Source: a virus. From it: DNA of 64,000 bases. Positions 40,180 through 60,068 of the stretch are shown here, one piece after another. Both the position numbers and the translations under genes were made by a program. Numbering within the stretch: position 1 is the first letter of the stretch; every line of letters begins with the position of its first letter. Location: the IMG/VR virus record IMGVR_UViG_3300027996_000008; one strand, written 5' to 3'. A model generated the notes under the pieces. The model saw only the letters and a program-made list of their open reading frames with translations. It was not told the DNA's origin and searched no databases.

Positions 40180-40539
40180 TTGTTAATTTTTGATTTGGAG
40201 AATAAAATGTATATAATAGGTTTTACAATAGCAATTTGTTGTTTTGTTTCAGCATTTGGAAGATTCATTTCAAGAAGCTGGAATGGAATAACTCTAGAAA
40301 TAAAAACAATAACTATTGTTGGACTATTAGGTCTTACAATGGTTTATTATGATGTGACAAGTCCTGTTGTCACTGAGCAAGAAATTTTCATAACAACACA
40401 CACATTCAAATATAATCTTGGATGTGGTGAATGGAAAATTAAAATTGAAAAAATAACACCAACTCGTTTTGGTGCAATATATAGAATGTCAAAGGGGTTT
40501 ACAGTGTTAGAACAATTGAAAAGATGTGATGAAAAATGA
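40180..40539 (+). CDS. Hypothetical membrane protein
   Basis: Two hydrophobic segments; early promoter at 40140. Confidence 0.6.
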   Translation: MLIFDLENKMYIIGFTIAICCFVSAFGRFISRSWNGITLEIKTITIVGLLGLTMVYYDVTSPVVTEQEIFITTHTFKYNLGCGEWKIKIEKITPTRFGAIYRMSKGFTVLEQLKRCDEK

Positions 40540-40745
40540 AACTAAATAAAATATTTGAAAAATCAAATGAATATAAAAAATATTTATCAAGTGGATTATA
40601 TTATGGTATAAGATACTATAATAGTATAAGATATTATAATTTAAATCTAAATAATTATGAATGGATTTTTTTTGATGTTACATATTTTAATGTATGGGTT
40701 AAAGAAAATTTTAAAACATTTGATAATTATGAGGAATACAAATGA
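40536..40745 (+). CDS. MKLNK-family mini-protein 1
   Basis: MKLNKIFEKS..YLSSGL ... YEEYK. Confidence 0.8.
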   Translation: MKLNKIFEKSNEYKKYLSSGLYYGIRYYNSIRYYNLNLNNYEWIFFDVTYFNVWVKENFKTFDNYEEYK

Positions 40746-40936
40746 AGCTTAACAAAAGATTTGAAAAGTCAAATGAAGGTATTAAATTTCTATCAAGTGG
40801 TTTGTATTTAAGTGGTTCTAAAGGATTACGATTAAGTTATAAGAAATGGATTTATTTTGATATTGCATATTTTAATGTATGGTTAAAAGATACTGAAAAT
40901 TCTGTATTATCAATTGATTATGAGAAATACAGATGA
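40742..40936 (+). CDS. MKLNK-family mini-protein 2
   Basis: MKLNKRFEKS..FLSSGL ... YEKYR. Confidence 0.8.
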   Translation: MKLNKRFEKSNEGIKFLSSGLYLSGSKGLRLSYKKWIYFDIAYFNVWLKDTENSVLSIDYEKYR

Positions 40937-41145
40937 ATCTGAATAGAATATTTGAAGCTAATAGAGATATATTTAAAAATGTATGGATTAATAAAATAGA
41001 TAGAGTATATTATGCAATATGCCATAATGATATAGTGTTAATTTTTAGTAATAATTCATTTACACGTAAAAATGAATGTTTTTTATATTTAAGAGGAAAT
41101 TTTGAAACACAGCAAGATATAGAATTACATGGGTATTGGTTATGA
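40933..41145 (+). CDS. MKLNK-family mini-protein 3 (divergent)
   Basis: MNLNRIFEA start, ATGA-coupled. Confidence 0.6.
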   Translation: MNLNRIFEANRDIFKNVWINKIDRVYYAICHNDIVLIFSNNSFTRKNECFLYLRGNFETQQDIELHGYWL

Positions 41146-41333
41146 AGCTCAATAAATGTATTGAAAAGTCTAAAAATTTTTATTCAATTCAATTTCTATC
41201 AAGTGGATTATATAAAAGCTCTAGTAATATTTTACAAATAAATATAAATGTTTATATTGAATATTATAAAAATTTAATTATCTTTTGTTATTATAAAAAT
41301 GAAGATAGAATTTACTATGAGGAATATCAATGA
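41142..41333 (+). CDS. MKLNK-family mini-protein 4
   Basis: MKLNKCIEKS..FLSSGL ... YEEYQ; stop overlaps gp47 ATG. Confidence 0.8.
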   Translation: MKLNKCIEKSKNFYSIQFLSSGLYKSSSNILQININVYIEYYKNLIIFCYYKNEDRIYYEEYQ

Positions 41334-42358
41334 AACATTTAATTTTGAGTGATTTACATTTCGGTGTAAAAACAGATGATTTTTTTATAAACTATCAAAA
41401 AAATTATCTTTTATCTCTAATAGAAATAATTAAAGAATATAATATAGAAAATATTATTGTAACAGGTGATATAAACGATAAAAGAAAAATCACTGATAAT
41501 AGAATTCTAAATATATTCAAAGATATTTTTAATGAGATAGAAAGACAAACAAATATTGGATATATTGCAATTGTTGGAAATCATGATATGTATTATAAAA
41601 ATTCACACAAATATAATTCAGTTGGAAACTTTTTCTCAGACAATTTGAAACACTTATCAATTGTTGATCAATGTTACAAATATAAAAATATGGTATTTGT
41701 TCCATGGATTACAACAGACAACTATGAATATGTTTCTGAGTTTATATCTAAACACAACTCAAAGGATAACTATTTATTTGGTCATTTTGCATTAAAAGGG
41801 TTTAAAATGACTGGAAATTACACATGTAAGAAATCTCAAATATTTAAATCAGATTATGAAAATTATGCAAAAGTTTTCTCAGGTCACTTTCACAATCAAC
41901 AAGAAAAGGATAATATTTTATATGTTGGAAATCCTTGGCAAACAAATTTTGGTGAATTAGAAAAAAAAGGCTGTTGGATTTTTGACAATGATTCAGGAGA
42001 AATTGAATTTATGGAAAATAAAAACAATCTTTTTGAAAAACATTTTATTAAAGATAATGAAGATTTACAAGGAATTGAAAAAAAATTATTGACTATTACA
42101 AATAAATATGTTAAAATTTATATAGATTCAATTGATAATAAATATATTAATTCAATTGATATGATTATAGAAAAACTAAAACCAAAAGAGGTTGATACTT
42201 CTATAAAGGATTTAGATTTAGAAATAGATGAAGATGTTGATTTTTCAATTGTTGAAAATGTTGATAAAGAATATTTCAATCAGTTGAAAATAGAAAATAA
42301 AAAAGTATTGCAGGAATTATTTAAAAATTATGAAATTAGAAATGAAATGGAGGATTGA
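41330..42358 (+). CDS. gp47: Recombination endonuclease nuclease subunit (Mre11/SbcD-like)
   Basis: SDLHFG, GD--D-R, GNHD, GH, SGHFH, Y-G-P. Confidence 0.95.
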   Translation: MKHLILSDLHFGVKTDDFFINYQKNYLLSLIEIIKEYNIENIIVTGDINDKRKITDNRILNIFKDIFNEIERQTNIGYIAIVGNHDMYYKNSHKYNSVGNFFSDNLKHLSIVDQCYKYKNMVFVPWITTDNYEYVSEFISKHNSKDNYLFGHFALKGFKMTGNYTCKKSQIFKSDYENYAKVFSGHFHNQQEKDNILYVGNPWQTNFGELEKKGCWIFDNDSGEIEFMENKNNLFEKHFIKDNEDLQGIEKKLLTITNKYVKIYIDSIDNKYINSIDMIIEKLKPKEVDTSIKDLDLEIDEDVDFSIVENVDKEYFNQLKIENKKVLQELFKNYEIRNEMED

Positions 42359-42359
42359 G

Positions 42360-42764
42360 ATGGCTAATGACAAAGACAAAACAAAAGACAAAGACAAAAC
42401 AAAAGACAAAGAAATAGAAGTTATTGAAGAAATAAAGATTAAACCAAAAAAACTAAAGAAACAAATTAGATTAGAAATGTTAGATTGCGATGAGTTTGGA
42501 GGAAAAATTGCTGATGTTATTGATAAATTATCAACATTAGAAATGAAATATATAAATTCAGGTGTTTCAAATATAGAAATAATATGCAAAGGATCTTATG
42601 ATAATGCATATTACATTCTTTATGGTATTCGTGAAGAAACTGACAAAGAATATGATAAAAGAATAGATAAAGAAAACAAAAAAACAGAACAAAAACAGAA
42701 ATTAATAGAAAAGAAGTTGAAAGAAATTAAAGAACTTCAGGAGTATATTGATGAAAATAGTTAA
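42360..42764 (+). CDS. Hypothetical protein with an 18-bp DKDKTK tandem repeat
   Basis: GGAGG SD before MANDKDK. Confidence 0.6.
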   Translation: MANDKDKTKDKDKTKDKEIEVIEEIKIKPKKLKKQIRLEMLDCDEFGGKIADVIDKLSTLEMKYINSGVSNIEIICKGSYDNAYYILYGIREETDKEYDKRIDKENKKTEQKQKLIEKKLKEIKELQEYIDENS

Positions 42765-42954
42765 CACTGAAAACAAAAAAGTGGTTCTAATGGGACCTAA
42801 AGAGTTTGAGATTTTGCCTTTTCTTTATCGAATTGCATTAAAGGAAATAGAAAATGGTTTGAAATCTCATGTTGATGAAGCATCTAAACAAGTGCTAATT
42901 GAAAGAAAAAAGATAATTCAGAAAATGATGAAAGAAATGCCAGAGGAGGAATAA
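42748..42954 (+). CDS. Hypothetical protein
   Basis: Operon packing. Confidence 0.55.
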   Translation: MMKIVNTENKKVVLMGPKEFEILPFLYRIALKEIENGLKSHVDEASKQVLIERKKIIQKMMKEMPEEE

Positions 42955-43638
42955 TTGATGAAAATAATAGGGTTAAGAATTGAAAAGTATATAGGAAAAT
43001 ATGTAAGTGGTTCTAATTGTGATTTTGAATATAAAGATTCTGAATTTGAAAGACATGTTCTTTGTGTAATTCTTGAAAATAATATAAGAGTAGAAATAAC
43101 ATTAACAGATGAAGAAGGAGAGTGTTATTCTGGATGGTGTTGTGCTTCATACGCAAATGTTGAATTTAAAGTAGTAAAAAGATTTAATGGATTTAATTTT
43201 AAACCAAAACAACTTATTATTATAGACGAAATAAAAGATTTGGTAGATTTACAAATTTTTTTTGAAAAAGATGAAATTCATTGTGATTTGCTAGAATTAA
43301 GCAAATTGGGTGGAGATGAATATTATCCTTCTGGATATTATAGTGTCAATATGGATTTATTTCAAAAAACAAACAGAGCAAAAGAAAAAAGACCTTGTTT
43401 TCTATTCAAAGGAGAATCAGCAATTGGCAAATCTTATTTGTCTTCTAGATTCAAAAAAGACGTTATAGTTTTTGAAACAGATTTTTGGGATATTTTACCA
43501 GATAAAATTGTTGCAGACGTTATAGTTTTTGGAAATAGGTCTAAATTTAGTATTGAAGAAATAGAATCAAAAACAAAGGATATAGAACTTGTTATAGTTG
43601 ATTTTACATATTTTAAAAAATTAAATGAGGTAGAGTGA
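42955..43638 (+). CDS. Hypothetical protein with C-terminal P-loop-like motif
   Basis: GESAIGKS. Confidence 0.6.
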   Translation: MMKIIGLRIEKYIGKYVSGSNCDFEYKDSEFERHVLCVILENNIRVEITLTDEEGECYSGWCCASYANVEFKVVKRFNGFNFKPKQLIIIDEIKDLVDLQIFFEKDEIHCDLLELSKLGGDEYYPSGYYSVNMDLFQKTNRAKEKRPCFLFKGESAIGKSYLSSRFKKDVIVFETDFWDILPDKIVADVIVFGNRSKFSIEEIESKTKDIELVIVDFTYFKKLNEVE

Positions 43639-43844
43639 TGTTTATACTAGCTAAATACATATTAAAATTTGGCGGTTGTTATTGTTATACAATCACAAAG
43701 AAATATACAACTGAATCATTGGATTTTGCTTTAAAAATTTATAATAGATACGAAAATCATAATATTATAAAAAATAAGCAAAAACTAATAACAAAAATTT
43801 TAAAAGAAAATTTTGAAGAAAGGATTATAAATGAAGAAGGTTAA
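43635..43844 (+). CDS. Hypothetical protein
   Basis: Operon packing. Confidence 0.5.
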   Translation: MMFILAKYILKFGGCYCYTITKKYTTESLDFALKIYNRYENHNIIKNKQKLITKILKENFEERIINEEG

Positions 43845-44046
43845 AAATATATTTGGTTGGAATACACCAAAACATTTTATTAAATTTATGAAGATAACAA
43901 AACATCTTGAATATGGATTTATAGAATGGTCTTTAGTTCTTAAAAAATATAGAAAATATCAAATTAAAGCATATTTGCTATTGCTAGTTGAAAAATTAGT
44001 TGAAATACTAAATAAAAATGTTGTTATTAAATTGGAGGATAGTTAA
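43831..44046 (+). CDS. Hypothetical protein
   Basis: Operon packing. Confidence 0.5.
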   Translation: MKKVKNIFGWNTPKHFIKFMKITKHLEYGFIEWSLVLKKYRKYQIKAYLLLLVEKLVEILNKNVVIKLEDS

Positions 44047-44184
44047 TTGTACACTAAAAGAAAAACATTAAAGAAAAAATTTGTTAAACACTTTAAACAC
44101 TTAGACTTTATTCTTGGATTCATTTCAGGATTTTCGTTCACAACTACAATTTTTATATTATTACAGATTATAGGAGGTTAAAAA

Positions 44185-44448
44185 ATGGTTGATATGACAA
44201 AACCAATTGGAAAAATGGATGATGAAGAATTTACAGAAATGCAAGAAGCAATTAAAAATGCAAAATACACAAAAGAAGTTCTTCCAGAAAAAGGAATGTT
44301 TGGTGTATTTTTAGTAATGGTTGTTCAAGAAAAAGAATTTTCAAAAAGAAGACTCTCACCATTATTCAAAAATGTATATGGTGCTAAAGAATGGTTGAAA
44401 ATTCATGATAAAAGAGTTTCTAAGCACAAAGGAGAAAAGAATGGTTGA
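44185..44448 (+). CDS. Hypothetical protein
   Basis: GGAGG SD. Confidence 0.6.
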   Translation: MVDMTKPIGKMDDEEFTEMQEAIKNAKYTKEVLPEKGMFGVFLVMVVQEKEFSKRRLSPLFKNVYGAKEWLKIHDKRVSKHKGEKNG

Positions 44449-44611
44449 TATCTCAAAATGTTCAAATAAAAATTGCAAAAAGAAAGAAATTTGTTACAGA
44501 TATGTTGTAGCTTCTGGTCTCAGACAATCATATGCATATTTTAAACCAGATGAAGAAACAGGAAAATGCAAATATTTTATAAAAGTTGACGAAGGTGTAA
44601 AATTAAATTAG
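44441..44611 (+). CDS. Small Cys-rich protein
   Basis: MVDISKC-N--C-K---CYRY...Q-Y...C-YF. Confidence 0.6.
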   Translation: MVDISKCSNKNCKKKEICYRYVVASGLRQSYAYFKPDEETGKCKYFIKVDEGVKLN

Positions 44612-44620
44612 GAGGTTATT

Positions 44621-44848
44621 ATGCCATTTTATGACATGAAATGCACAAATGAAAAATGCAAAAAGAAAGATGTTGATGTTGAAATAATGTGTTCAATGTC
44701 AAATTCTAAAGAACAAAAATGCAAAGAATGTGGAGAATTATTGAAAATAACACATAAACCTAAAAACAATGGTGTTAGAGGGTTTAGGATAAAAGGTGAA
44801 TGTTGGACAACAACTAGTCATGGTGGGAGTCACACAATTCATGATTGA
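44621..44848 (+). CDS. FmdB-family zinc-ribbon protein
   Basis: MP-YD-KC---C ... C-ECG ... F--KG--W. Confidence 0.82.
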   Translation: MPFYDMKCTNEKCKKKDVDVEIMCSMSNSKEQKCKECGELLKITHKPKNNGVRGFRIKGECWTTTSHGGSHTIHD

Positions 44849-44860
44849 TATTTAAATTAA

Positions 44861-45322
44861 ATGGAGTTTGTTATGAAGAAGAAATTAGAATTCAATTATC
44901 AATTTGATACAGCTAATCTGGTCAAAATAAAACTTAATGTTGGTGCAAGTGCAGTCAATGAGACACTAACTAGAATGGGATTTGGTAGACCTAATTCAAA
45001 AACACTAAATCAAACATGTTTTCTCATCAAGATAAAGAAAGAATGGTATATTATACATTTTAAAGAAGCATATGGATTAACAGGGTGTGATATTAATTGG
45101 AGAGATGAAAATATCCAACACAGAAATACTGTTGCTAGATTACTTCAAGAATGGGGAAATATAACAATTCTAAACGAAGATACAATAGATTTTTCATATG
45201 GAAAGAACATAACAAAAGAACCAGCATTTATTTTCAAAATCAAACACGAAAACAAAGATGATTTTAAATTAAAACCGAAATACTTTATCGATCCTTTAAG
45301 AGGTTTATTACAAGAGATCTAA
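44861..45322 (+). CDS. regA: Translational repressor RegA
   Basis: ETLTR-G, L-QTC, YIIHFKE, RN--A-LL-EWG. Confidence 0.9.
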   Translation: MEFVMKKKLEFNYQFDTANLVKIKLNVGASAVNETLTRMGFGRPNSKTLNQTCFLIKIKKEWYIIHFKEAYGLTGCDINWRDENIQHRNTVARLLQEWGNITILNEDTIDFSYGKNITKEPAFIFKIKHENKDDFKLKPKYFIDPLRGLLQEI

Positions 45323-45394
45323 AAAACGTTTTGACATTTTAATAAAAATCAGTTATAATTATTATAGGTTGTTAATTTATTTAAGAGGTTTATT

Positions 45395-46825
45395 ATGAAA
45401 AAAATATTTTTAATTTTTGTTTTTTTGGTTGGATGTGTTGGATGTGTTGGAACAGAACCAATCTATGAAAATGATTTTCTAAAAGATTGTTCTAAATTTT
45501 CAGAACAAATTAATTTAAATACAGAAGTTATGAAAATGACATCACTATTGAATTGTAGTGACAATTTTGTCACTAATGTAAAAAATCAAGCTCCACACGG
45601 AACATGTGGAGAATTTGCTGAAACATCAGCATTAGAAACAATGACAGGACTATATTTAGAAGGTCTTGTTGAAAAAAATGACCTTCATGGAGATTTTCTT
45701 AATATTAATCTATCAGAAGCAATGCATCAATATAATAATAATAATTATATTAGTGATAGATCTAAAAAAACAACAACAGAATCTATTTTTCCATATGAAT
45801 TATTTCCAGGGGAAATATCGGAATGGAACACAAATCATTTTAATGAAAATTCAGTTTTTAATTCTGCAATTTTATTTTCTCTAAAATATCAACAATATAA
45901 AAATTGTAGAAACATAATAAAAAATATTGAAAAATATGAAAATTATGAATTGTTTGATATTATTAAAAATATAAAAATAGACATGAAAAAATGTCTTGAT
46001 GAAATAATTGAGAAAACAGAAACAACAACAGTATCATATATAAGCGAAATGAAAACAGTTGAAAATAGAATGTTTATTAGACCTATATGTACAAATGGAA
46101 TAGATAAAATAGAGTGTTCTGAGCTAACAGAACCATTTGGAGGATATAAATATAATTTATTCAATAATAAATTTACAGAAACAGAATTTCAAATTGATTG
46201 GAATGAATATGATAATTCAGTTAAAAAAATGATAAATTCAGGAAGAACAATCATTATTGCTCTTCCTTGGAATCATATGAAGAATGATGAATTAATTGAA
46301 ACAAATAAACCATATAATTTTCAAAAGAGAATTATCAAACCAAAAGATGAATTTGAAATTTTTGAAAATTGTTGGGACGGAAATAGAAATGGAATATGTG
46401 AAGAAAAAGAAGATAAAAATAAAGATGGAGAATGTACATTGATTGATGATTGCAATTATAATTTTAGTGATTCAATTGAAATAGATGAAGATGGAAAAAG
46501 GCATTTTTACAATCATGGTCACAAGGGACACATTGTAAATATAATTGGTTATATTGAAAATGAAGACATAACATATTTTATTGTTAAAAATTCATGGGGA
46601 GATAATTATAAAGGAAAAGATTTATTTTATTTAATACCAACACCTGGAACACATAAAGCATCGAGAAGAGTTTTTGGATTCTATTCACATAAATTTGGAA
46701 TTACTAAAAACAATAAAAAATTAGAAGGAGGCTGGGCAATGAAACAGTTATATAGTAATGATTTACTTCATGATGGAGATGAAGATGGAGTAATAGATTT
46801 ATTAGATAAAGATTTATTTAATTAA
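45395..46825 (+). CDS. Papain-like (C1) cysteine protease, putative lipoprotein
   Basis: Signal peptide with LVGC lipobox; Q..GTC, GH-V-IIGY, KNSWG; DxDxDG Ca-binding-like motifs. Confidence 0.85.
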   Translation: MKKIFLIFVFLVGCVGCVGTEPIYENDFLKDCSKFSEQINLNTEVMKMTSLLNCSDNFVTNVKNQAPHGTCGEFAETSALETMTGLYLEGLVEKNDLHGDFLNINLSEAMHQYNNNNYISDRSKKTTTESIFPYELFPGEISEWNTNHFNENSVFNSAILFSLKYQQYKNCRNIIKNIEKYENYELFDIIKNIKIDMKKCLDEIIEKTETTTVSYISEMKTVENRMFIRPICTNGIDKIECSELTEPFGGYKYNLFNNKFTETEFQIDWNEYDNSVKKMINSGRTIIIALPWNHMKNDELIETNKPYNFQKRIIKPKDEFEIFENCWDGNRNGICEEKEDKNKDGECTLIDDCNYNFSDSIEIDEDGKRHFYNHGHKGHIVNIIGYIENEDITYFIVKNSWGDNYKGKDLFYLIPTPGTHKASRRVFGFYSHKFGITKNNKKLEGGWAMKQLYSNDLLHDGDEDGVIDLLDKDLFN

Positions 46826-46867
46826 AAAATATAAATAATTTCGTATTAAATATATGGAGTTATTAAA

Positions 46868-48160: not shown

Positions 48161-48205
48161 TTATATCTCCTAAATAATAATTTTCTAAATTTATTTATAA
48201 AAAGT

Positions 48206-48297
48206 TTGACTTTCGTGTCTGGTTATGCTATAATTAAAGTATAGAGGTTAAGACAGTTTAACCTCAGTTGTTAATTTATTTGAAGGAGGTCGTTATG
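48206..48297 (+). promoter_or_regulatory. Promoter-stem-loop-SD cassette 1 (PeSL-like)
   Basis: TTGACT-17-TATAAT, gaggttaa/ttaacctc hairpin, agttgttaattt, aaggaggtcgttatg. Confidence 0.75.
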
Positions 48298-48822
48298 ACT
48301 ATTAAAAGAATTTCAATAAAAAATAAAAAAGAATTAAATAAAGAAAATGGAATGATAGAGATCTTTTCAGGTATTATTATGTCTGAAGAACTTTTTGAAA
48401 AAGTAGAGAGTTTTGAAGACTGGAAAGCAGAAGGGGAATATTTTGGAAATCTTTTTGTGGTTCAATCTCTTATTGAGTGTACATACTCAATAAGTAGAGA
48501 ATTTTCCAGACTTGAAGCCTCACAGGAAGAAATTCTCGGAAAAAAATTCTTTATCAATGGGTCTAAATTAAGTATAAGCCCAAAAATCAGACAGGTTGAA
48601 CCTCAGTTCAAGCCTGTTAGAAATGCAAAAGAATTGTTAGATATTTTGACTTCTAATTGTGGGATGTGGGATTCCAGATTTGATTCTGAATATTCTGAAA
48701 TTGCTGAAATAATCAGACAAGTTGAAAAAGAATTCTTTGCTATAGAAGTTGCGGCAAAAGTTGCTGATGCAAACGCTCCAGTAGGAATGTCTGACAATAA
48801 AAAAGAATATTTTAAAAAATAA
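48295..48822 (+). CDS. Hypothetical early protein
   Basis: Own promoter cassette and SD. Confidence 0.7.
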   Translation: MTIKRISIKNKKELNKENGMIEIFSGIIMSEELFEKVESFEDWKAEGEYFGNLFVVQSLIECTYSISREFSRLEASQEEILGKKFFINGSKLSISPKIRQVEPQFKPVRNAKELLDILTSNCGMWDSRFDSEYSEIAEIIRQVEKEFFAIEVAAKVADANAPVGMSDNKKEYFKK

Positions 48823-48825
48823 TTC

Positions 48826-48915
48826 TTGACTTCTACATTTAGATATGCGATAATTAAATTGTAGGGTTGAGTTAGTTCAGCTCAGTTGTTAATTTAAAAG
48901 GAGGAGATAGATATG
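48826..48915 (+). promoter_or_regulatory. Promoter-stem-loop-SD cassette 2
   Basis: TTGACT-17-GATAAT, gggttga/tcagctc hairpin, agttgttaattt, ggagg. Confidence 0.75.
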
Positions 48916-49311
48916 AGAAATGTAAACTTAGATAGCTGTCATAGCTATGATGTATATGAAAAAGACAATAAATTTTTCCTCCGTAAAATATACGGTGGTG
49001 GTATAAGAAGAAATATATCAGATACTCATACTGAGATATCTGAAGATGAATATAAAGCTCTGATCTCTGAAGCTGAAGAGTTTGAGAGAAAAAGAAATGA
49101 AGAAAAAAAAGAAAAAGAAAGTGAACATGATAAAAAGATGTCATGGTTCAAAAAAATAGAGGGTGTATACCCTGAAATGGAAATGGAGATAAAAAATGGT
49201 GAAGTTTTTGATAACTACGGAAATTTTTTATTTTATGCACCAAAAAAACCAGTTGATATTTCAACTTGGTTAGAGGAGAAAATTGAAGATTTTATGGAAA
49301 ACTGTGAATAA
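48913..49311 (+). CDS. Hypothetical early protein
   Basis: Own promoter cassette and SD. Confidence 0.7.
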   Translation: MRNVNLDSCHSYDVYEKDNKFFLRKIYGGGIRRNISDTHTEISEDEYKALISEAEEFERKRNEEKKEKESEHDKKMSWFKKIEGVYPEMEMEIKNGEVFDNYGNFLFYAPKKPVDISTWLEEKIEDFMENCE

Positions 49312-49333
49312 AATTTATTTGTCAAAATAATTG

Positions 49334-49424
49334 TTGACTTTTATATTTAGATATGCGATAATAGTATTATAGAGTTGAGGTTGTTCAACTCAATTGTTAA
49401 TTAATTTAAAAGGAGGTCGTTATG
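49334..49424 (+). promoter_or_regulatory. Promoter-stem-loop-SD cassette 3
   Basis: TTGACT-17-GATAAT, gagttga/tcaactc hairpin, aattgttaatt, aaggaggtcgttatg. Confidence 0.75.
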
Positions 49425-49790
49425 ACTGAAAAAAGAATGTTCATAAATGCAACACCACACGTAATAACATTAAGACAAAGAGACGGTCTTGATGTAAGTT
49501 TTCAACCTTGTGGAACCGTTCCACGAGTTAACACAATAGAAGAGGATGCAGGTTTTAACTGTGTTCCTCTAGTGACTTCTGAATTAGGGGAAGTAACAAA
49601 TCTTCCTGATTTTTCAGAATTAAACCATAATGGAACTGTGCATATATTTTGCATTGTTTCTAGAATGGTTCTTGATGCTGTAGAACCAGTTAAAGGAGTT
49701 ACATTTGTAGCGCCAGACAGTGGTAAGACAGCTATCAGAAATGAAAAGGGTCATGTTCAGGCCGTTACAAGATTGATTGTTAAAAAATAA
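49422..49790 (+). CDS. Phage hypothetical protein (N-TPH-I family pattern)
   Basis: INATPH-ITL, P-G-V-RV, IVS--V---V ... -APD. Confidence 0.7.
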   Translation: MTEKRMFINATPHVITLRQRDGLDVSFQPCGTVPRVNTIEEDAGFNCVPLVTSELGEVTNLPDFSELNHNGTVHIFCIVSRMVLDAVEPVKGVTFVAPDSGKTAIRNEKGHVQAVTRLIVKK

Positions 49791-52221: not shown

Positions 52222-52254
52222 CTTGACATTATTTATAAAATAAGTATAATTATA
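52222..52254. promoter_or_regulatory. Bidirectional early(+)/late(-) promoter cassette, second copy
   Basis: 33 bp identical to 17887-17919. Confidence 0.75.
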
Positions 52255-52277: not shown

Positions 52278-52484
52278 ATGAAACTAAACAAAATATTTGA
52301 AAAGTCAAATAAATATAACAAATTTCTATCAAGTGGAATACATTGGGACGAGCTGATAAATTCAATTTATTTAAATCCTTATTTGTTTATTCGTTTTCAT
52401 AATTTTCATGAAAAATTTCATATTAGGATTAAATTTGGTGCAGATGGAATTCATGGAAGATTTAAATTTGAGGATTATCAATGA
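52278..52484 (+). CDS. MKLNK-family mini-protein 5
   Basis: MKLNKIFEKS..FLSSGI ... FEDYQ. Confidence 0.8.
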   Translation: MKLNKIFEKSNKYNKFLSSGIHWDELINSIYLNPYLFIRFHNFHEKFHIRIKFGADGIHGRFKFEDYQ

Positions 52485-52699
52485 AACTAAATAAAATGAT
52501 TGAAAAATCTGATAAATATGAAAAATATTTATCAAGTGGAATACATTATTATGAGCCGTTTAATTCAATTTATTTAAATCCTTATTTGTTTATTAAATAT
52601 CTCAATTTTCATGAAAAATTTTTTATTCAGGTTAAATTTGGCGCTGATGGAATTCATGGAATTCAAGGAATTTTATATAAATTTGAGGATTATCAATGA
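52481..52699 (+). CDS. MKLNK-family mini-protein 6
   Basis: Close paralogue of 5. Confidence 0.8.
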   Translation: MKLNKMIEKSDKYEKYLSSGIHYYEPFNSIYLNPYLFIKYLNFHEKFFIQVKFGADGIHGIQGILYKFEDYQ

Positions 52700-52983
52700 G
52701 CAAAATAGATAAATTAATAAAATATCTTGAAAGACACACACAAATGAATCAAATATCAGATTGGCATAAAGGATGTGTATCTTCACAGAATTATATAATA
52801 GATCATTTGAAAAAAAGTAAATCTATCTATTTTACACATGATGAAATTATAAAATATAAAAACCATATAAAAAAATCAGATAAAAGAATAGCATATAAAA
52901 ATACAGTTTTAGCAGGAAATTGGTATGGGTTGTGTGAATTTGATAAAATCTTCAAAAACTGGAGAAAAAATGAAACTGAATAA
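52696..52983 (+). CDS. Hypothetical protein
   Basis: ATGA-coupled to mini-protein 6. Confidence 0.6.
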   Translation: MSKIDKLIKYLERHTQMNQISDWHKGCVSSQNYIIDHLKKSKSIYFTHDEIIKYKNHIKKSDKRIAYKNTVLAGNWYGLCEFDKIFKNWRKNETE

Positions 52984-53188
52984 GTGTTTTGAAAAATCAA
53001 GCAGACATACAAAATTTCTGTCTAATAGTTTATTGTTATTATCAGCACATAATGGTGAATATTTAGGAGTAAATTTTAATGAATATTTTGATTTTAATGA
53101 TTGTTTATGTTTTAAAGATGTTTGGTCATTTGAATGTAAATCAGGAAGAAAAACACAATATTCATTAAAATTTAGAAAATACAAATAA
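52970..53188 (+). CDS. MKLNK-family mini-protein 7
   Basis: MKLNKCFEKS..KFLSN ... FRKYK after GGAG SD. Confidence 0.75.
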   Translation: MKLNKCFEKSSRHTKFLSNSLLLLSAHNGEYLGVNFNEYFDFNDCLCFKDVWSFECKSGRKTQYSLKFRKYK

Positions 53189-53661: not shown

Positions 53662-53669
53662 AAAACTTC

Positions 53670-53726: not shown

Positions 53727-53733
53727 TACAACA

Positions 53734-54693
53734 TTGAAATTTCTCATCGACATCAGCAACATCCTTTGTGCTGGATATTTATCAAAACATGATGATTATA
53801 TTCGTAATTTTTCGTTAGAAGATCTTGAAAATGCAGTTAGAGAATATACATTGTATCGTATATTCGGGTTTATGTATTATTTAAAAGCTAAACAGGATGA
53901 CATTATTATATGTTTAGATTATGGAAGTTGGAGGTATGATTTTTTTCCTGAATATAAATGGAAAAGAAAACAATCTAAGAGTAAATCAAAAGTTGATTTT
54001 GACATAATGTATAAATTCTTTAAAAAGTTTGAAAAAGAACTTACTGATTTTTTTCCATTTAAAACGATCAAAGTACATAAAGCTGAGGCAGATGATATTA
54101 TTGGATGTCTAGCAAAACATATTGAAAAAACTGGAGAAGATGTGCTAATATGCAGTTTAGATAAAGATTTTGTTCAGCTTACATCTGATAAAGTAAGACT
54201 ATATGATATTGGTAAAAACACAATTGTCAAAGAGATTAAGTTAGGTTCAAAAGATATTATTATTCCTATAACAACCGCAAAAGACGCTAAAAAGTATCTT
54301 TTATTCCAGATTATGTACGGAGACTCTTGTGATGGAATTTGTAATGTAAAATCAGACAATGATGCATTTTCTAATCCAACAAAACAACAGAAAAGATTTG
54401 GACCAAAAACAATTATGAAACATATCTTCTCAGAAGACAAAAAACAAAACAAAGAAAACCTGAAGAAAATATATGATGAATATTCTGAAAATATGAAAAG
54501 AAATGCAAAATTAATTGATCTTAAATATACACCTAAAGAAATAAAAAAAGAAATAATAAAACAATATGAAGAATCGAAAAAATCTATTTCAATCAAAAAA
54601 ATACATAACTATTGTGAGCAACACGATTTAAGAGATTTGATTGAAAAAGTGAACAAATTTTTATATGAAGATATAGGTATTGATTTTGTATAA
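53734..54693 (+). CDS. rnh: T4-type RNase H / 5'-3' exonuclease
   Basis: LID-SN, D--SWR----P-YK--R, EADDII, S-DKDF-QL, GD--DGI-NV. Confidence 0.92.
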   Translation: MKFLIDISNILCAGYLSKHDDYIRNFSLEDLENAVREYTLYRIFGFMYYLKAKQDDIIICLDYGSWRYDFFPEYKWKRKQSKSKSKVDFDIMYKFFKKFEKELTDFFPFKTIKVHKAEADDIIGCLAKHIEKTGEDVLICSLDKDFVQLTSDKVRLYDIGKNTIVKEIKLGSKDIIIPITTAKDAKKYLLFQIMYGDSCDGICNVKSDNDAFSNPTKQQKRFGPKTIMKHIFSEDKKQNKENLKKIYDEYSENMKRNAKLIDLKYTPKEIKKEIIKQYEESKKSISIKKIHNYCEQHDLRDLIEKVNKFLYEDIGIDFV

Positions 54694-54786
54694 AAACTAT
54701 TTAGGCTATGTGTTACTATTCATAAATCTTTTTTGTGTTGTGATGAACGAATATGAAGCTTAAATTAACTATTTAGAACTAGGAGA

Positions 54787-54987
54787 ATGATTATGTATGA
54801 AGAACTAAACAGGAATCAAAAAGAATTTTTTCAAAAACTAGCGGACCTTTGTGAAATGTATGGATGTAACATTGAAACAATTAGTACATGCTATTCAACA
54901 TTGAATTTTCAGTTTGATGAAGGAAACATTGAATTTGATCAAGACAGCATTGACCACATGGATATCAAAACATTTTTGGACGAGTAG
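54787..54987 (+). CDS. Hypothetical protein
   Basis: GGAG SD. Confidence 0.55.
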   Translation: MIMYEELNRNQKEFFQKLADLCEMYGCNIETISTCYSTLNFQFDEGNIEFDQDSIDHMDIKTFLDE

Positions 54988-55010
54988 AAACAATTAATAG
55001 GAGGTATATT

Positions 55011-55691
55011 TTGATTAGGATTGATTTGTTTGATGAAGATCAGGAAATTATTAAACCCAAAAAAGAAAGAAAAAAAGTTGTTCACGAAAATCTATTAAAA
55101 AAGAAAAGAAAGAAAGGTGAAAAATCAAAACGTGACTATGTAGATGGAGCAAGATTATATAGATTGATGTGTGCTTGGTGGTTTTTGAAGAAAAGAATTT
55201 TGAAAATTAGGAAACAAATTGAAAATCCATTTCTATCTGAAGAAATGTTTGAAAAAATTGGAAACAAATTCTTTCAGTTAAAATTGGCACATAAGAGCGC
55301 ATTTGATGAATTAACAACAAGTTATCTTCTAATAGCAAAGAAATATACTAATCATAAGAATTTTATTGGGATTCCTAAAGACACTAAACATGAATTAGCA
55401 ATGACAGCACTAATAAAAGGAATGTCAATTGGTAAAAATAAAAATAATAAGAATTATGGGATTCCCTATATGTGCAGATTTGATATCAATAAAAGTGAAA
55501 GTGTATTTTCATTTTTTGATCAAACAATTCAGAATTTTTTCTATCAATATACAAACGATCAAAAGAGATATAGAGAAATCAAACAAGAATGTCTTCATAG
55601 TAGATTCAGACAGTTACAACAAGATGCATTTAATCTAGGAATCAAAGGACCATTGAATTTTTATGCAGATTGCGTTTCTGATGAAGATTAA
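55011..55691 (+). CDS. gp55: Late transcription sigma factor gp55-like
   Basis: DYVD---LY, LIA-------NF, RFD--KS-S-FSFF-QTI-N-F match the gp55 pattern; TATAAATA promoters present. Confidence 0.78.
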   Translation: MIRIDLFDEDQEIIKPKKERKKVVHENLLKKKRKKGEKSKRDYVDGARLYRLMCAWWFLKKRILKIRKQIENPFLSEEMFEKIGNKFFQLKLAHKSAFDELTTSYLLIAKKYTNHKNFIGIPKDTKHELAMTALIKGMSIGKNKNNKNYGIPYMCRFDINKSESVFSFFDQTIQNFFYQYTNDQKRYREIKQECLHSRFRQLQQDAFNLGIKGPLNFYADCVSDED

Positions 55692-55753
55692 CTTGACATT
55701 TTATATTTTTCAAGTATAATAGTATTTAAGTAAATTTTATTTTGGTGAAAAAA

Positions 55754-55960
55754 ATGAAACTAAATAAATGTTTTGAAATGAATGAAAGAAAGGTGAAAAA
55801 TTTATTTTATGCCAAATTTCTATCGAATGGATTGTATATTGAGTATAGATCTTCTTTAGTTTTTCAAACAACACATAGATTATATTTTTTGGATTTTGAT
55901 CTAAGATGGAATGAATTCTCAATTATGTATGAACGACATGTAATGGATGAATATCAATGA
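55754..55960 (+). CDS. MKLNK-family mini-protein 8
   Basis: MKLNKCFEM..KFLSNGL ... DEYQ; own promoter at 55693. Confidence 0.78.
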   Translation: MKLNKCFEMNERKVKNLFYAKFLSNGLYIEYRSSLVFQTTHRLYFLDFDLRWNEFSIMYERHVMDEYQ

Positions 55961-56145
55961 AACTAAATAAAAGATTTGAAAAGTCAAATAAATATGAAAA
56001 ATTTCTATCAAATGGATTATCAAAAGATAGTGTTGGGTTAAATCATTATAATTCATTTAATTTATATTTAAATTTATATAAAGAATATTTTAAATTATGG
56101 AGTGTAAATTTTAGCAAAATAAAAAATTACATGGAGTATAGATGA
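55957..56145 (+). CDS. MKLNK-family mini-protein 9
   Basis: MKLNKRFEKS..KFLSNGL ... MEYR. Confidence 0.8.
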   Translation: MKLNKRFEKSNKYEKFLSNGLSKDSVGLNHYNSFNLYLNLYKEYFKLWSVNFSKIKNYMEYR

Positions 56146-56276
56146 AACTAAATAAAATATTTGAACAATCTGATGAATATGAAAAATTTCTATCAAATGG
56201 ATTATCAAAAGATAGTGTTGGGTTAAATCATTATAATTCATTTAATTTATATTTAAATTTATATAAAGAATATTTT
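55991..56276. repeat. 101-bp exact direct repeat between mini-proteins 9 and 10
   Basis: 55991-56091 equals 56176-56276 (period 185). Confidence 0.88.
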
Positions 56277-56330
56277 CTTCTTTGGGATTTAGATTTTAGC
56301 AAAATAAAAAATTACATGGAGTATCAATGA
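56142..56330 (+). CDS. MKLNK-family mini-protein 10
   Basis: Near-duplicate of 9; stop overlaps primase ATG. Confidence 0.8.
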   Translation: MKLNKIFEQSDEYEKFLSNGLSKDSVGLNHYNSFNLYLNLYKEYFLLWDLDFSKIKNYMEYQ

Positions 56331-57412
56331 ATTTTCTAAATAGAAAATATATCAAATTATTGAACTTCAAAAATATGCAAGAAGAAGATGGAAAGATTAA
56401 ATTCGAATGTCCATATTCTGATTGCAAGCAAGATGGAAAAACAAAGGCATATGTATTATCAATTGATTCACTAACAGCAACATTCTATTGTCACAGATGC
56501 AATAAAAAACATCATTGGTCTAAATTGCTAGAAGAATTTGACTATATTTTATATAGAAAATATTTAGAAGAAAAAAGATTCTATGAGATTGATAATTTCA
56601 CAATAAAAGAACCAACATCAATTAAAATAACAAATGAAAAGACATATGAACACGATTTTGATGATTTTCGTAAACACTTAAAATCACTAGACAATTTATC
56701 TAGTTATAACAAAGGTAAACAATACATAGAAATTGAAAGAAGAATTCCAAAAAAACATCATGAAAATATGTTTTATTTTAAAGGAAATCCATATGAGTTT
56801 TTCAATAAAATATTTAACACTGAAAAATATTCAAAACAAGCTGAAAAAGGATACACATATGAAGGTGTGATTGTTCCTTTTCTAACAAAACAAAATAATA
56901 TTACAAAAATAGTTGGATTTGCTCTAAGAGTTATAGGAAATTCAAGAATGAGATTCATTAACTTATTCAATGAAAATATTGGTAGTTCATATTTATTAGG
57001 TATTCACAAAGTCGATTGGAATAAACCCGTTATAGTTGTTGAAGGGTTATTGGATAAACTATCATTTAACAATGATGATCAAGTTCTTGCATTAATGTCA
57101 ATCAATCTTAAAATAGATGTTATTCAAAAATTAGCAAGAAATAAAGTCATATATGTATTAGATAATCAATTTGATCATAAAGATGTAACAAAACAACTTG
57201 ATAAGATTATTGAAACTGATTTCTATGTTTGTGCATGGGACAAAACAGCGGATGGTTGTAAAGATGTGAATGATTTGAGAAAAAATGGATGGAATGATAA
57301 AAAAATCAAAACAATGATCTTTAAAAACTCTTATAATTCCTTAATTGCTGATGTTATGATTAAAAAACGAATTGAGGAAACCCAGGAGAATATGTATGTT
57401 AAAACTAAATAA
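56327..57412 (+). CDS. gp61: DNA primase
   Basis: CP...C, YCH-C zinc domain, VVEGLLD, VLDN, KDVND toprim motifs. Confidence 0.92.
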   Translation: MNFLNRKYIKLLNFKNMQEEDGKIKFECPYSDCKQDGKTKAYVLSIDSLTATFYCHRCNKKHHWSKLLEEFDYILYRKYLEEKRFYEIDNFTIKEPTSIKITNEKTYEHDFDDFRKHLKSLDNLSSYNKGKQYIEIERRIPKKHHENMFYFKGNPYEFFNKIFNTEKYSKQAEKGYTYEGVIVPFLTKQNNITKIVGFALRVIGNSRMRFINLFNENIGSSYLLGIHKVDWNKPVIVVEGLLDKLSFNNDDQVLALMSINLKIDVIQKLARNKVIYVLDNQFDHKDVTKQLDKIIETDFYVCAWDKTADGCKDVNDLRKNGWNDKKIKTMIFKNSYNSLIADVMIKKRIEETQENMYVKTK

Positions 57413-57596
57413 ATTGATTGAACATTCCAATAATGTTAAAAAATTTCTATCAAGTGGTATAATAATATTTTATGATAAGCATGTATTAAATGTTTTTCAT
57501 TTGAATGTTACAAATACATTTTTAGCATGTTATAATAATAAAATAGGATTTTTTTATACTAATTACAAAAAAATTGAGAAAACAGAATATAGATGA
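57396..57596 (+). CDS. MKLNK-family mini-protein 11
   Basis: MLKLNKLIEHS..KFLSSGI ... TEYR. Confidence 0.72.
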   Translation: MLKLNKLIEHSNNVKKFLSSGIIIFYDKHVLNVFHLNVTNTFLACYNNKIGFFYTNYKKIEKTEYR

Positions 57597-57606
57597 GGAG
57601 GTCAAA

Positions 57607-58041
57607 ATGTTTGATTTATATGAACCAGAAGAAAAAGAAGTTATTAAAAAACCTAAAAAGGCATCTGCTTTTGATCTTTTAAAAGCAATCACAATCAACA
57701 AAAATCTAAAAAACATCAACTACAAACCATCAGATTGTTTCTTCATATTAACATTAATGTGTTATAATCAACAATTAAAAAAATATGCAACACCATTTAT
57801 TGATAGATATGGCAAATTGTCAAATAAAGAAATATTGCGTATTTTAGAAAAAATACTACCTAAAAAATCTTTTTTCATTAAAAGAAAAATCAATAAATTT
57901 CATGAAAATGATTTAGTAATAAGAGTGTCAAATTTCTTTAATGTATCTGATGATGTTGCAATTGATTACTTAGATACTGTTAAGATTGCTGGTGAATATG
58001 ATCAATTCATAGAATGTTTTGATCTTGGTGGTAGAGTTTGA
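57607..58041 (+). CDS. gp62: Clamp loader small subunit gp62-like
   Basis: FDLLKAI---K N-terminus, K---FIK, ---FFNVS---A--YL pattern. Confidence 0.6.
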   Translation: MFDLYEPEEKEVIKKPKKASAFDLLKAITINKNLKNINYKPSDCFFILTLMCYNQQLKKYATPFIDRYGKLSNKEILRILEKILPKKSFFIKRKINKFHENDLVIRVSNFFNVSDDVAIDYLDTVKIAGEYDQFIECFDLGGRV

Positions 58042-58151
58042 AAAAAGTCTTTTTAATGTTTGTTTTCAAAAAACTCTTTGACATTTATATAATATTGATA
58101 TATAATAGTAAGTGATAATATTTTTTATTAATTTTATCCTGGGAGGATATC

Positions 58152-58862
58152 ATGAAAGTCAAATTATTTTTAACATTGCTGATGGTGTTAATGTTGTCTT
58201 GTACAACAATTCACTATCACACAGGGAATTCAGGAAAATCAAGTCAGGACAAAATTTATGATGTTATTAACAAGAACATAAAGTCAATTGTTCTTGTTAA
58301 AACTACGGTTTTAGACATTGTATGTTTAACACCAAATACAAATTCATGTAAAATTATTGAAAATAGTATGTTTGGAACAGGATATCTTGTTGATAAAGAA
58401 AAAGGTCTATTTGTTACAAATAGACATGTTATAGAAGGAAATATCAGAGTTGAATTATTGCTGGGCGAAAAGGTTGTAAAAACTAAAATATTAGAAGCAA
58501 GTGAAAAACCTGATGTAGCACTATTAAAGGTTGAAGATTTAGAATTTGTTGAAAATTTAGAGCAAGTTAAATTTTGCTATAATTATAAAGTTGGCGAAAA
58601 GGTTGTTTTAATTGGGCATCCATTAGGGCTAGTAAATTCTGTATCAACAGGAATTATATCAGCGCTTAGAGATCTTTATATACAAACTGATGCCGCTATT
58701 AATTCTGGAAATTCTGGTGGTCCTATGTTTAATCTAAAAGGTGAATTTATTGGTATGAATACTTTTATGTACACAACAACAGGGGCTAACATTGGTTTGA
58801 ATTTTGCAGTCAAATCAAAAGAAGTCATGAAAATTATTAAAAAACATTTATCTAAAAAATAA
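58152..58862 (+). CDS. Trypsin-like (HtrA/S1C-type, no PDZ) serine protease, putative lipoprotein
   Basis: LMLSC lipobox; TNRHV, DVALL, DAAIN-GNSGGP triad motifs. Confidence 0.9.
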   Translation: MKVKLFLTLLMVLMLSCTTIHYHTGNSGKSSQDKIYDVINKNIKSIVLVKTTVLDIVCLTPNTNSCKIIENSMFGTGYLVDKEKGLFVTNRHVIEGNIRVELLLGEKVVKTKILEASEKPDVALLKVEDLEFVENLEQVKFCYNYKVGEKVVLIGHPLGLVNSVSTGIISALRDLYIQTDAAINSGNSGGPMFNLKGEFIGMNTFMYTTTGANIGLNFAVKSKEVMKIIKKHLSKK

Positions 58863-58926
58863 ATTGACTTTAAAATAAAATTAATATATAATACTAATGT
58901 TTGAATGTTAACTATGGAGGTTAAAA

Positions 58927-59136
58927 ATGACATCACAAATGATTGTTATATTATCACTTGGAATTAATCTAAATATTCTTTTCTATTTATTAGGATTTGA
59001 TAATAAATCCCTGTATATGACAAAAAAGAATAAAATTATCTTTAGTATTTTGTGTTTAATTCCATTTCTTTATTCAATTATGGTATTGATTGCAGGATTA
59101 TATATTAGTTTAAGAAAGGAGGAAAATAATGTGTGA
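58927..59136 (+). CDS. Small membrane protein
   Basis: Two hydrophobic segments. Confidence 0.6.
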   Translation: MTSQMIVILSLGINLNILFYLLGFDNKSLYMTKKNKIIFSILCLIPFLYSIMVLIAGLYISLRKEENNV

Positions 59137-59572
59137 TACTAATTACATGTATCTAGATGTAGACCATAGATTTTATTATTCGAATTTGAATTGGCATCTA
59201 GAGAAGAGAAGAAAAATTAAAAATAAAGAAGAATACAAATGGAACAATGTTGGATTTTATTCTAAACTTTCTCATCTTTATAACGAGGTTGCTAAAAGAT
59301 TAAAAATAAAACATTGTGAAAATATCAAAGAATTGAATGAAGCTTTTAATAATATGTTAGAAAAGATTGCTGAATTCAATGATATTATTATCAAAGATGG
59401 AACACCTACTGTAATTCAAGAAAGAGTGATTATCGAATATAGAACTGAAGTTCTTAAAGAAGATGGAAGATGTGCTGGTGGTCTAAAACATGTCGAAAAT
59501 AAAAATGAAAGAAAAGTGATAAAAGACGACACTAAGAAAAAAGATAAAGAAATAAATTTTGAATTTTGTTAG
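59129..59572 (+). CDS. Hypothetical protein
   Basis: GGAGG SD. Confidence 0.6.
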   Translation: MCDTNYMYLDVDHRFYYSNLNWHLEKRRKIKNKEEYKWNNVGFYSKLSHLYNEVAKRLKIKHCENIKELNEAFNNMLEKIAEFNDIIIKDGTPTVIQERVIIEYRTEVLKEDGRCAGGLKHVENKNERKVIKDDTKKKDKEINFEFC

Positions 59573-59584
59573 GTTTGAATATAG

Positions 59585-59770
59585 ATGAAGCTGAATAAAA
59601 TATATGAAAAGAATTCAAAATTTCTATCAAATGGTGTGTTTGTATTTACTGTTAATTTATATTATAATATGGATGAGTGGATTTATTTAGCTGATATTAC
59701 ATATTTTAATGTGTGGGTTAAAGATATTGAAAAATCTGTAATACATATTAAATATGATGAATATAGATGA
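59585..59770 (+). CDS. MKLNK-family mini-protein 12
   Basis: MKLNKIYEK..KFLSNG ... YDEYR; resembles member 2. Confidence 0.8.
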   Translation: MKLNKIYEKNSKFLSNGVFVFTVNLYYNMDEWIYLADITYFNVWVKDIEKSVIHIKYDEYR

Positions 59771-59807
59771 AACCGAATAAATTTATTGAATTTTTTAGGA
59801 GGAAAAA

Positions 59808-60068
59808 ATGAAAATTTTAAAATTGTTAGTTATTATGTTAATTGTTATGAGTGTAGTTACATTAATTGCTGATGAGTTCAAAAGTGGCGATATTGTTTGC
59901 CAGGTTATTAAAGATCCAGAAAGAAATAATTATAACAAATTGATTAATTGTAAAAGAATTGTAGATGTTAAGAAAAAGAAATATTTGTTCATGATTATAG
60001 AGAATAAGAATTTTAAAATTGAACAAGAATCAAAAAATCTATTAAAAAAGTATATTAAGGTTAATTAA
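59808..60068 (+). CDS. Hypothetical exported protein
   Basis: N-terminal signal-peptide-like segment. Confidence 0.6.
   Translation: MKILKLLVIMLIVMSVVTLIADEFKSGDIVCQVIKDPERNNYNKLINCKRIVDVKKKKYLFMIIENKNFKIEQESKNLLKKYIKVN

Follow-up and report, generated by a model that had tools for sequence, protein, structure and literature searches.

What is encoded by twelve small open reading frames (ORFs) that begin and end almost alike, differ nearly everywhere in between, and lie largely in short arrays in a phage genome? The ORFs occur in a 64-kb stretch of viral DNA with a GC content of 22–30% (IMG/VR record IMGVR_UViG_3300027996_000008; hereafter the window), in which an initial annotation placed twelve ORFs of 61–72 residues at five loci. 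All twelve are present (m1 to m12; Table 1). We propose, with a probability of about 0.5, that they encode early, diversifying host-interaction or counter-defence proteins that are in constant turnover. This family of small early proteins would be specific to one phage lineage and expanded to about 30 copies per genome, each copy being a cassette.

A typical member consists of an octapeptide of the form MKLNKx[F/I]E, the sequence KFLS[S/N]G, a body of 35–45 residues and a (Y/F)-(E/D)-(E/D)-Y-(Q/R/K) end. An alignment of the members bears out the MKLNKxFEKS...KFLS(S/N)G head and the (E/D/K)Y(Q/R/K) end that had been described for them. Residues L3, N4 and E8 are invariant in the window members; near-invariant positions are M1, K2, K5, the K, L and S within KFLS, and the penultimate Tyr. 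The bodies, in turn, are almost wholly different between subfamilies. Comparison by hhalign agrees with the earlier description of m3 as a head-only member, since just its first 12 residues are common with the family. A six-frame pattern scan and a profile search of the window recovered only the twelve members and the 14-codon head remnant of a thirteenth, and the pattern scan found no family member between positions 1 and 40 kb. The 797 codons of the family frames include no stop, whereas the two remaining sense frames of this DNA contain 67 and 148 stops, which confirms that the family is real and coding rather than a product of chance.

The family matched no characterised one in any search, and the initial annotation had likewise recognised no known family. 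Specifically, Pfam and PHROGs returned only sub-threshold noise for the ten members searched, and ESM Atlas gave no usable match. When 1.84 billion representative proteins were searched exhaustively with a family profile, only 20 clusters were obtained, all from this phage lineage, with approximately nine derived from the window and the others from related metagenome contigs. A region found on contigs from the same samples (L007 and L013) encodes MoxR-VWA, an NAD-dependent ligase, Cpn10 and a glucosaminidase, and adds 18 members to the family. These form five or more arrays, and one of them is head-only and another broken. The genes for the MoxR-type AAA ATPase and a VWA/DUF2201 protein (L007 612-3240) are located directly upstream of two family members. 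In the broken copy (L013 9300-9560), the head MKLNKCYEKYANCTQVS ends at a stop 17 codons in, and an intact KFLSNG...YEDYQ remainder comes after it; this copy is decaying or recombinant.

For family member P0013 of this second region, as for m5, m2 and the capsid protein, the longest contig listed as carrying it measures 128,709 bp. The equal lengths suggest one contig, and thus a single genome with about 30 members that includes both the window and the second region. The copies are ancient and diverged, lie at ten or more places, and make up approximately 4–5% of the large phage genome. Scans of IMG/VR and of JGI metagenomes gave one related locus each (L005 and L006). These represent a second, more distant phage (dS of about 1.2 relative to the window in a common gene) with seven members, some of which sit among late structural genes. 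No member lies within about 10 kb of the ligase gene in the relatives L020-L023, whose ligases are 62% or 36% identical, and the family is therefore confined to a narrow clade.

Selection was assessed by region after pooling ten independent paralog pairs. For codons 1–8, the ratio of non-synonymous to synonymous substitution rates (dN/dS) is 0.10 (bootstrap 0.03–0.26) despite a proportion of synonymous differences (pS) of 0.47, and Leu3 is written with four different codons. The head is therefore conserved as a peptide and not as DNA, in accord with the earlier claim that its synonymous variation reflects peptide-level selection. The ratio is 0.45 for codons 9–21 and 0.23 for the last five codons. 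For the body it reaches 1.27 (0.98–1.69), where dS is probably saturated: at a GC content of 13% at third codon positions, the observed 0.27 is probably close to the level at which synonymous differences saturate. We have therefore discarded the pooled value above 1 as evidence of positive selection. The closest pairs give body ratios of 0.62 (m5/m6) and 0.82 (m9/m10). With regard to neutral evolution, which the initial annotation had named as a refuting result, selection on the protein is strong at both ends and the ratio in the body is roughly neutral.

Other features of the bodies suggest that they are under some constraint. The frames are kept, the length is held within the narrow range of 61–72 residues, and the insertions and deletions that separate strains are all in frame (9, 21 and 6 nucleotides). 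We also count as constraint a recurrent L-N and I-x-F pattern, as well as the conservation between the window and the L005/L006 lineage, where body identity is 41–45% compared to 55% for a neighbouring gene.

Variation between strains is concentrated in the arrays. Strain L001 is 99.9% identical to the window over aligned blocks of 9,984, 559 and 8,094 bases (about 18.6 kb), and all differences within these blocks fall inside m7 or m10. At the m7 locus, L001 carries three members where the window carries one, such that two cassettes (about 404 nucleotides) are absent from the window. The window m7 combines the front of the first L001 copy with the tail of the third, and the crossover lies within a common stretch of at most 48 nucleotides encoding WSFECKS.

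At m10, the L001 allele has insertions of 21 and 6 nucleotides and seven substitutions, six of them non-synonymous, which account for all substitutions between the window and L001. These changes extend from nucleotide 55 of the gene to 13 nucleotides before its end, and hence lie between the conserved head and tail. The simplest account is that recombination within the conserved ends brought in a diverged allele, because the changes are bounded by these ends and their density is unlike that of the approximately 18 kb of flanking DNA. Local neutral drift is ruled out by the occurrence of seven substitutions in 189 nucleotides versus about 18 kb without change. Gene conversion was likewise rejected, as the sampled paralogs include no donor for this allele. 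A target of a diversity-generating retroelement, for which adenine-specific changes relative to a template repeat would be expected, was also considered and rejected on the substitution spectrum (G>A, T>C, G>A, A>C, T>A, A>G, T>C) and the lack of a donor copy among the loci, although no search aimed at a reverse transcriptase was made.

Similar patterns recur in other samples. In strain L002, 13 of the 15 differing positions lie in m6, which has a 9-nucleotide deletion, and in m7. Sequencing run X4 contains the same m7 variant as L002, and run X5 has a cluster of variants in m8. The enrichment is weaker in the second genome region, where 3/8 and 5/8 differences fall in family genes that occupy about a quarter of that DNA. 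The scars on either side of m12 (Table 1) are what would be expected as leftovers of deletions between conserved ends. Short-read (Logan) contigs break at the arrays, as repeats would cause them to do, and single contigs might be chimeric. The recurrence of the same variants across independent assemblies and runs, such as the m7 variant in both L002 and X4, shows that the family is not an assembly artefact.

The arrays are headed by sigma-70-type promoter motifs, two of which are perfect matches to the consensus (Table 1). Arrays in L005 and L007 are headed in the same manner, even where they lie between late genes. The T4 late motif, TATAAATA, is found approximately 15–40 nucleotides upstream of the genes for the portal, the capsid, gp25-like, gp6-like and other late proteins, and precedes all head and baseplate genes that could be recognised. 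This motif does not occur on the array strand upstream of the arrays in the window or in L007; in the 12-kb L007 region, which holds 15 members, the plus strand lacks it entirely. From the promoter motifs alone, we infer that the arrays are expressed early in infection.

Within the arrays, stop and start codons overlap as ATGA between successive members, and the same overlap joins m4 to a 342-residue gene, m10 to the primase gene and m6 to a 95-residue ORF. At the junction of m4 and the 342-residue gene, this arrangement suggests translational coupling. In addition, the tail codons GAG-GAW-TAY and ATG-GAG-TAT place a GAGGA or GGAG at a suitable spacing ahead of the next ATG. The Shine-Dalgarno sequence of the following gene and the ATGA junction explain part of the tail conservation. 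The GAA-GAA-TAT tail before position 41330 lacks a Shine-Dalgarno sequence, and there E-E-Y is kept.

AlphaFold2 models were generated from a 22-row alignment (predicted local distance difference test score, pLDDT, of 69) and a 38-row alignment (pLDDT of 62.5), and the greater depth of the second brought no improvement. In both models, the N-terminal 8–13 residues are of low confidence with at most one helical turn, and are followed by a five-strand antiparallel meander in which KFLSSG forms the first strand and turn. The initial annotation had proposed a common docking helix at this position. Such a helix is unsupported by the two models, given the flexible N-terminus and the beta meander, and the constant N-terminal part is better described as a predicted flexible tag with a first hairpin. 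A fold search of the first model against the PDB, BFVD and 48,161 PDB representatives retrieved nothing above chance, with the best score (Z 4.7) going to single-layer beta-sheets such as OspA and TCP10.

In the mechanism that we propose, the arrays would be transcribed from host-type sigma-70 early promoters and translated as chains via the ATGA overlaps, often continuing into the primase, the 342-residue gene or smaller ORFs. The DNA that spans tail, junction and head, together with patches common to the bodies, would serve as homologous-recombination sites, through which cassettes could be gained by duplication, lost by deletion, fused, or traded among co-circulating strains. The proteins would work in the cytoplasm of the host as a repertoire of diversifying effectors built on one small beta scaffold, whose constant ends might serve folding or a common partner and whose variable faces might determine target specificity.

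Early promoters and a position beside replication genes would fit genes for host take-over or anti-defence, and arrays that are a hot spot of strain-level variation would fit an arms-race repertoire. The support for an effector function is circumstantial and comprises the early promoters, the small size of the proteins, the focus of strain variation, the position of the arrays and a charge reversal between m9 and m10. These two members are 88% identical in DNA, yet differ in net charge (+6.6 versus −2.4) and in isoelectric point (9.7 versus 5.2). The gap of about 9 charge units arises from approximately ten substitutions, nearly all of which replace a basic or neutral residue by an acidic or neutral one. 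Of the diversifying repertoire that the initial annotation had suggested, the undescribed family, the constant ends, the hypervariable body and the cassette arrays stand, and the arrays are the hot spot of strain variation, whereas the docking helix is not supported. The body dN/dS is not clearly above 1.

One elaboration of the effector proposal is put forward only tentatively, with a fairly low probability. It envisions a natural library of about 30 mini-binders on a single beta scaffold that is continually rebuilt for counter-defence by cassette exchange at a coding junction, which would be at once a recombination site, a point of ribosome hand-over and the source of the constant protein termini. 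The octapeptide might also act as a protease-cleaved tag for capsid delivery.

Several results weigh against the effector proposal. The body dN/dS is about neutral, and the substitutions between strains, approximately 14 non-synonymous to 3 synonymous, equal the neutral expectation. A profile derived solely from bodies encoded on other contigs picked out just three of the ten window bodies tested (m5, m6 and m9) above shuffled controls. The structural models are of moderate quality only and match no known fold, and the window stretch was not found in any RNA run among the data sets searched. The aromatic richness of the bodies, another feature noted initially, is present by count, with F, Y and W making up 17–29% of residues (about 21% in most members) versus 11% in long ORFs. 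However, members have a GC content of 16–25%, with a first-position value of 0.28 versus 0.35 in core genes, and by our own estimate random stop-free codons of such composition would give about 18% aromatics. This enrichment may therefore be largely compositional.

Some of these results would be expected if the arrays were near-neutral relays or selfish cassettes, in which only the junction matters, the body is filler kept open to let ribosomes arrive at the next start, and copies spread via their recombining ends rather than through the usefulness of each protein. Body ratios near 1, strain changes at the neutral proportion, bodies mostly missed by the profile of other bodies, members more AT-rich than the genome, and the existence of scars and a broken copy are all in keeping with this explanation. 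The tail codons that supply GAGGA or GGAG to the next ATG could be accounted for in the same way, except that some tails without a Shine-Dalgarno sequence keep E-E-Y. Moreover, the head is maintained as a peptide and not as RNA, as judged by the codon usage of Leu3 and the synonymous divergence reported above, and peptide-level constraint is also evident on KFLS(S/N)G and the tail. Filler would likewise not explain the density of substitutions in m10, the restricted length, or the body identity of 41–45% between lineages (55% for a neighbouring gene). For these reasons we consider the filler explanation unlikely.

A different function is suggested by the octapeptide. The members could be cargo similar to the internal proteins of phage T4, in which case the octapeptide would be a capsid-targeting sequence that brings each member into the prohead core, a gp21-type protease would cut after Glu8, and the bodies would be injected with the DNA to block defences of the host, like IPI*. 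T4 gp21 cleaves after L/I-x-E and itself has such a site (LIE-9), and the internal proteins of T-even phages are diverse defence inhibitors, regarded as an arms-race set, that have only a 10-residue targeting sequence in common (PMC3012670, PMC9026906). The phage analysed here encodes a prohead protease of the matching gp21/S77 family (window 391-1056, minus strand; phrog_207, 1.5e-39, and Pfam Peptidase_S77). A predicted complex between this protease and family member P0008 had a score of 0.00, which speaks neither for nor against binding.

The protease (MTDKKLIE), the scaffold (MEIKTILE) and the capsid protein (MAKERNLLVE) each begin with a hydrophobic-hydrophobic-Glu motif at residues 6–8 or 8–10, whereas only two of the 41 long window ORFs, one being the protease, have this motif within their first 11 residues. 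The major capsid protein, which is encoded to the left of the window (L017 12630-14039), is only 469 residues long and contains LIE, QLE, SLE and LAE sites at approximately residues 45–58. Its MAKERNLLVE resembles the short propeptide of T4 gp24 (10 residues) more than the longer one of gp23 (65 residues).

Among the family members, E8 is present in 37 of 38 and residue 7 is F, I or Y in all 38. At residue 6 (the P3 position), 24 of 38 members have I, M or L, but the other 14 have R or C, where the T4 protease needs L or I. A flexible N-terminal segment of 8–13 residues in the models would suit a cleavable tag, although the conservation extends beyond a tag of 8–10 residues to KFLSSG and the C-terminus. 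In addition, the array promoters are exclusively of the early sigma-70 type, with the late motif absent from the array strand in both the window and L007. No similarity to T4 IPI was seen in Pfam, and no match to internal proteins was obtained from Pfam, PHROG, the PDB or BFVD. Delivery as internal-protein cargo is therefore quite improbable.

The family can be compared with the T-even internal proteins (IPI, IPII, IPIII and the polymorphic ip loci). In both cases a T4-type phage with the same protease family encodes small proteins that have a short constant N-terminus ending in Glu and diverse bodies. The family differs in its copy number (about 30 rather than 3–4), in its purely early promoters, in the conservation of a second N-terminal block and the C-terminus, in a P3 position that is not consistently Leu or Ile, and in its lack of sequence similarity to IPI. 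If the octapeptide were a capsid-targeting tag, the T4 internal-protein principle would be extended to a distant marine lineage.

A conserved N-terminus combined with a variable remainder, many copies and a marine genome also recalls the precursors of ribosomally synthesised and post-translationally modified peptides. Marine cyanobacteria have prochlorosin gene families of this type, with a conserved leader and a hypervariable core. However, the Pfam labels of genes beside the arrays in the window, L001, L007 and L013 include none for a modifying enzyme, a protease-transporter or a recognition element. Furthermore, the bodies are poor in Cys, have a predicted beta structure and are closed by a second conserved motif. 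A role as modified-peptide precursors is thus rejected on gene neighbourhood and composition, and we assign it only a very small chance of being correct.

The effector proposal has a functional parallel in the dmd and tifA genes of T4 (61.5 and 61.4). These are small early counter-defence (anti-toxin) genes next to the primase gene, at a locus named for primase gene 61, where copy number shifts and the genes are amplified by recombination between short homologies (PMC9391042). The products of the T4 locus are early proteins of 60–85 residues, and the order in the window is similar, with the perfect promoter at 55693 followed by m8–m10 and then by the primase gene at 56327. In contrast to the family described here, the T4 genes are unrelated, single-copy and non-paralogous, and their amplification occurred under laboratory selection. 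No significant Pfam or PHROG match indicates homology to Dmd, TifA or related proteins.

The recombination logic is already known from the PeSL-ORFan (intergenic promoter and stem-loop) cassettes of hyperplastic regions in T4-type phages, whose conserved flanks permit small orphan genes to be inserted, deleted or swapped between near-identical phages (Arbiol et al. 2010, PMC2839356). As with those cassettes, conserved flanks appear to act as recombination sites, the differences of L001 and L002 from the window map to family genes, and the m10 allele is bounded by head and tail. Unlike those cassettes, the common sequence here is itself coding (tail, ATGA, head), the genes form translationally linked chains, and the cargo is paralogous. 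Nor does each array member carry its own promoter and stem-loop: promoters are found at the array heads only, and no stem-loop was reported for the arrays. What is new is a coding recombination substrate that would double as stop-start junction, ribosome-binding site and constant termini, and whose cargo consists of about 30 paralogs from one family.

True PeSL-type cassettes are present elsewhere in the window (48186-48300, 48806-48920 and 49314-49428) and in a strain-specific insertion of L001 (10868-10990). Each consists of TTGACT, a 17-nucleotide spacer, TG-CGATAAT, a stem-loop of 8–9 base pairs with compensatory changes, the constant CAGTTGTTAATTTA, AAGGAGG and ATG, and each copy precedes a different orphan gene. 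The L001 insertion spans 1.2 kb (L001 10897-12117, corresponding to window position ~53672) and lies just after the promoter that precedes the RNase H gene. It begins with the PeSL-type cassette and contains an ORF of 138 residues. Its distal part is about 72% identical, on the opposite strand, to window 10291-10877, which covers the 5′ portion of a homing-endonuclease gene and the sequence upstream of it.

Large eukaryotic DNA viruses carry tandem arrays of diverging paralogs that are gained and lost by recombination and are tied to host range or immune evasion. The multigene families and gene accordions of these viruses, of which poxvirus K3L is one case (cited in PMC9391042), resemble the present arrays in that tandem diverging paralogs occupy variable regions. 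They differ in hosts and virus groups and in the lack of homology, and the proteins described here are much smaller.

Hyperplastic regions of phages contain orphan genes that decide host range, and most of these are single and untraceable. In the present case, one orphan family is almost the sole difference between co-existing, otherwise identical strains, and the mechanism of its shuffling is legible from the sequence. The family might thus offer a tractable entry to what marine myoviruses contest with a low-GC host, and to how phages make protein diversity without a dedicated mutator.

The gene content of the window points to a T4-type phage. It encodes a portal, the gp21/S77 prohead protease, a gp2-like DNA end protector and an SbcC-like nuclease subunit, along with a helicase, RNase H, a gp61-type primase and a B-family DNA polymerase for replication. 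The closest sequenced phages have only about 28–34% protein identity, with the primase nearest to Acinetobacter T4-likes and the portal to cyanomyophages. A megablast search with 20 kb of the window against 50,697 phage records gave no match, and several seawater metagenomes contain near-identical DNA. Based on these findings, the phage, with a GC content of 25%, is an uncultured, novel and deeply branching marine T4-like myovirus of a low-GC host.

Table 1. Positions of family members, promoter motifs, scars and adjoining genes in the window.
Feature	Position	Strand	Remarks
Putative sigma-70-type early promoter, head of unit 1	40140-40168	+	TTGACT-17-TATAAT; 11/12 match
Lead gene of unit 1	40207-40539	+	small, hydrophobic-looking, possibly membrane protein; non-family; stop overlaps m1 start (ATGA)
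Array 1 (m1-m4)	40536-41333	+	neighbours joined by 4-nt ATGA overlaps
m1	40536-40745	+	array 1
m2	40742-40936	+	array 1
m3	40933-41145	+	array 1; head only
m4	41142-41333	+	array 1
342-aa gene	41330-42358	+	T4 gp47/SbcD-like nuclease subunit by motif reading by eye; start overlaps m4 stop (ATGA)
Perfect sigma-70 promoter motif	52223-52250	+	TTGACA-16-TATAAT; 12/12 match; 28 nt upstream of m5
Array 2a (m5, m6)	52278-52699	+	tandem duplicate pair, 78% nucleotide identity
m5	52278-52484	+	array 2a
m6	52481-52699	+	array 2a
95-aa ORF between m6 and m7	52696-52983	+	non-family; ATGA overlap with m6; 14-nt overlap with m7 start
m7	52970-53188	+	chimera relative to strain L001
Perfect sigma-70 promoter motif	55693-55720	+	TTGACA-16-TATAAT; 12/12 match; 34 nt upstream of m8
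Array 3 (m8-m10)	55754-56330	+	m9/m10 recent duplicates
m8	55754-55960	+	array 3
m9	55957-56145	+	array 3
m10	56142-56330	+	array 3
T4 gp61-type DNA primase	56327-57412	+	start overlaps m10 stop (ATGA)
m11	57396-57596	+	single member; start overlaps last 17 nt of primase gene
Sigma-70-type promoter motif	58864-58892	+	11/12 match; unit ending with m12
Tail scar F-E-Y-R-stop	59574-59587	+	directly before m12 ATG; no gene body ahead
m12	59585-59770	+	single member; flanked by scars
Head scar MKPNKFIE + 6 codons + stop	59767-59811	+	14-codon remnant; overlaps m12 stop and start of next gene (59808)

Two further genes of the window lie outside the family. Between the portal and prohead protease genes (window 1074-1334, minus strand) is an ORF for a basic protein of 85–86 residues that has a hydrophobic N-terminal stretch and no match; the corresponding position in T4 is occupied by the core-protein genes 67 and 68. 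Upstream of array 1, an ORF of 989 residues (window 37059-40028) was read by eye, from its motifs, as an anaerobic ribonucleotide reductase that carries an intein with a LAGLIDADG-type endonuclease. It contains an LGDGS motif, and the insert ends in THNC.

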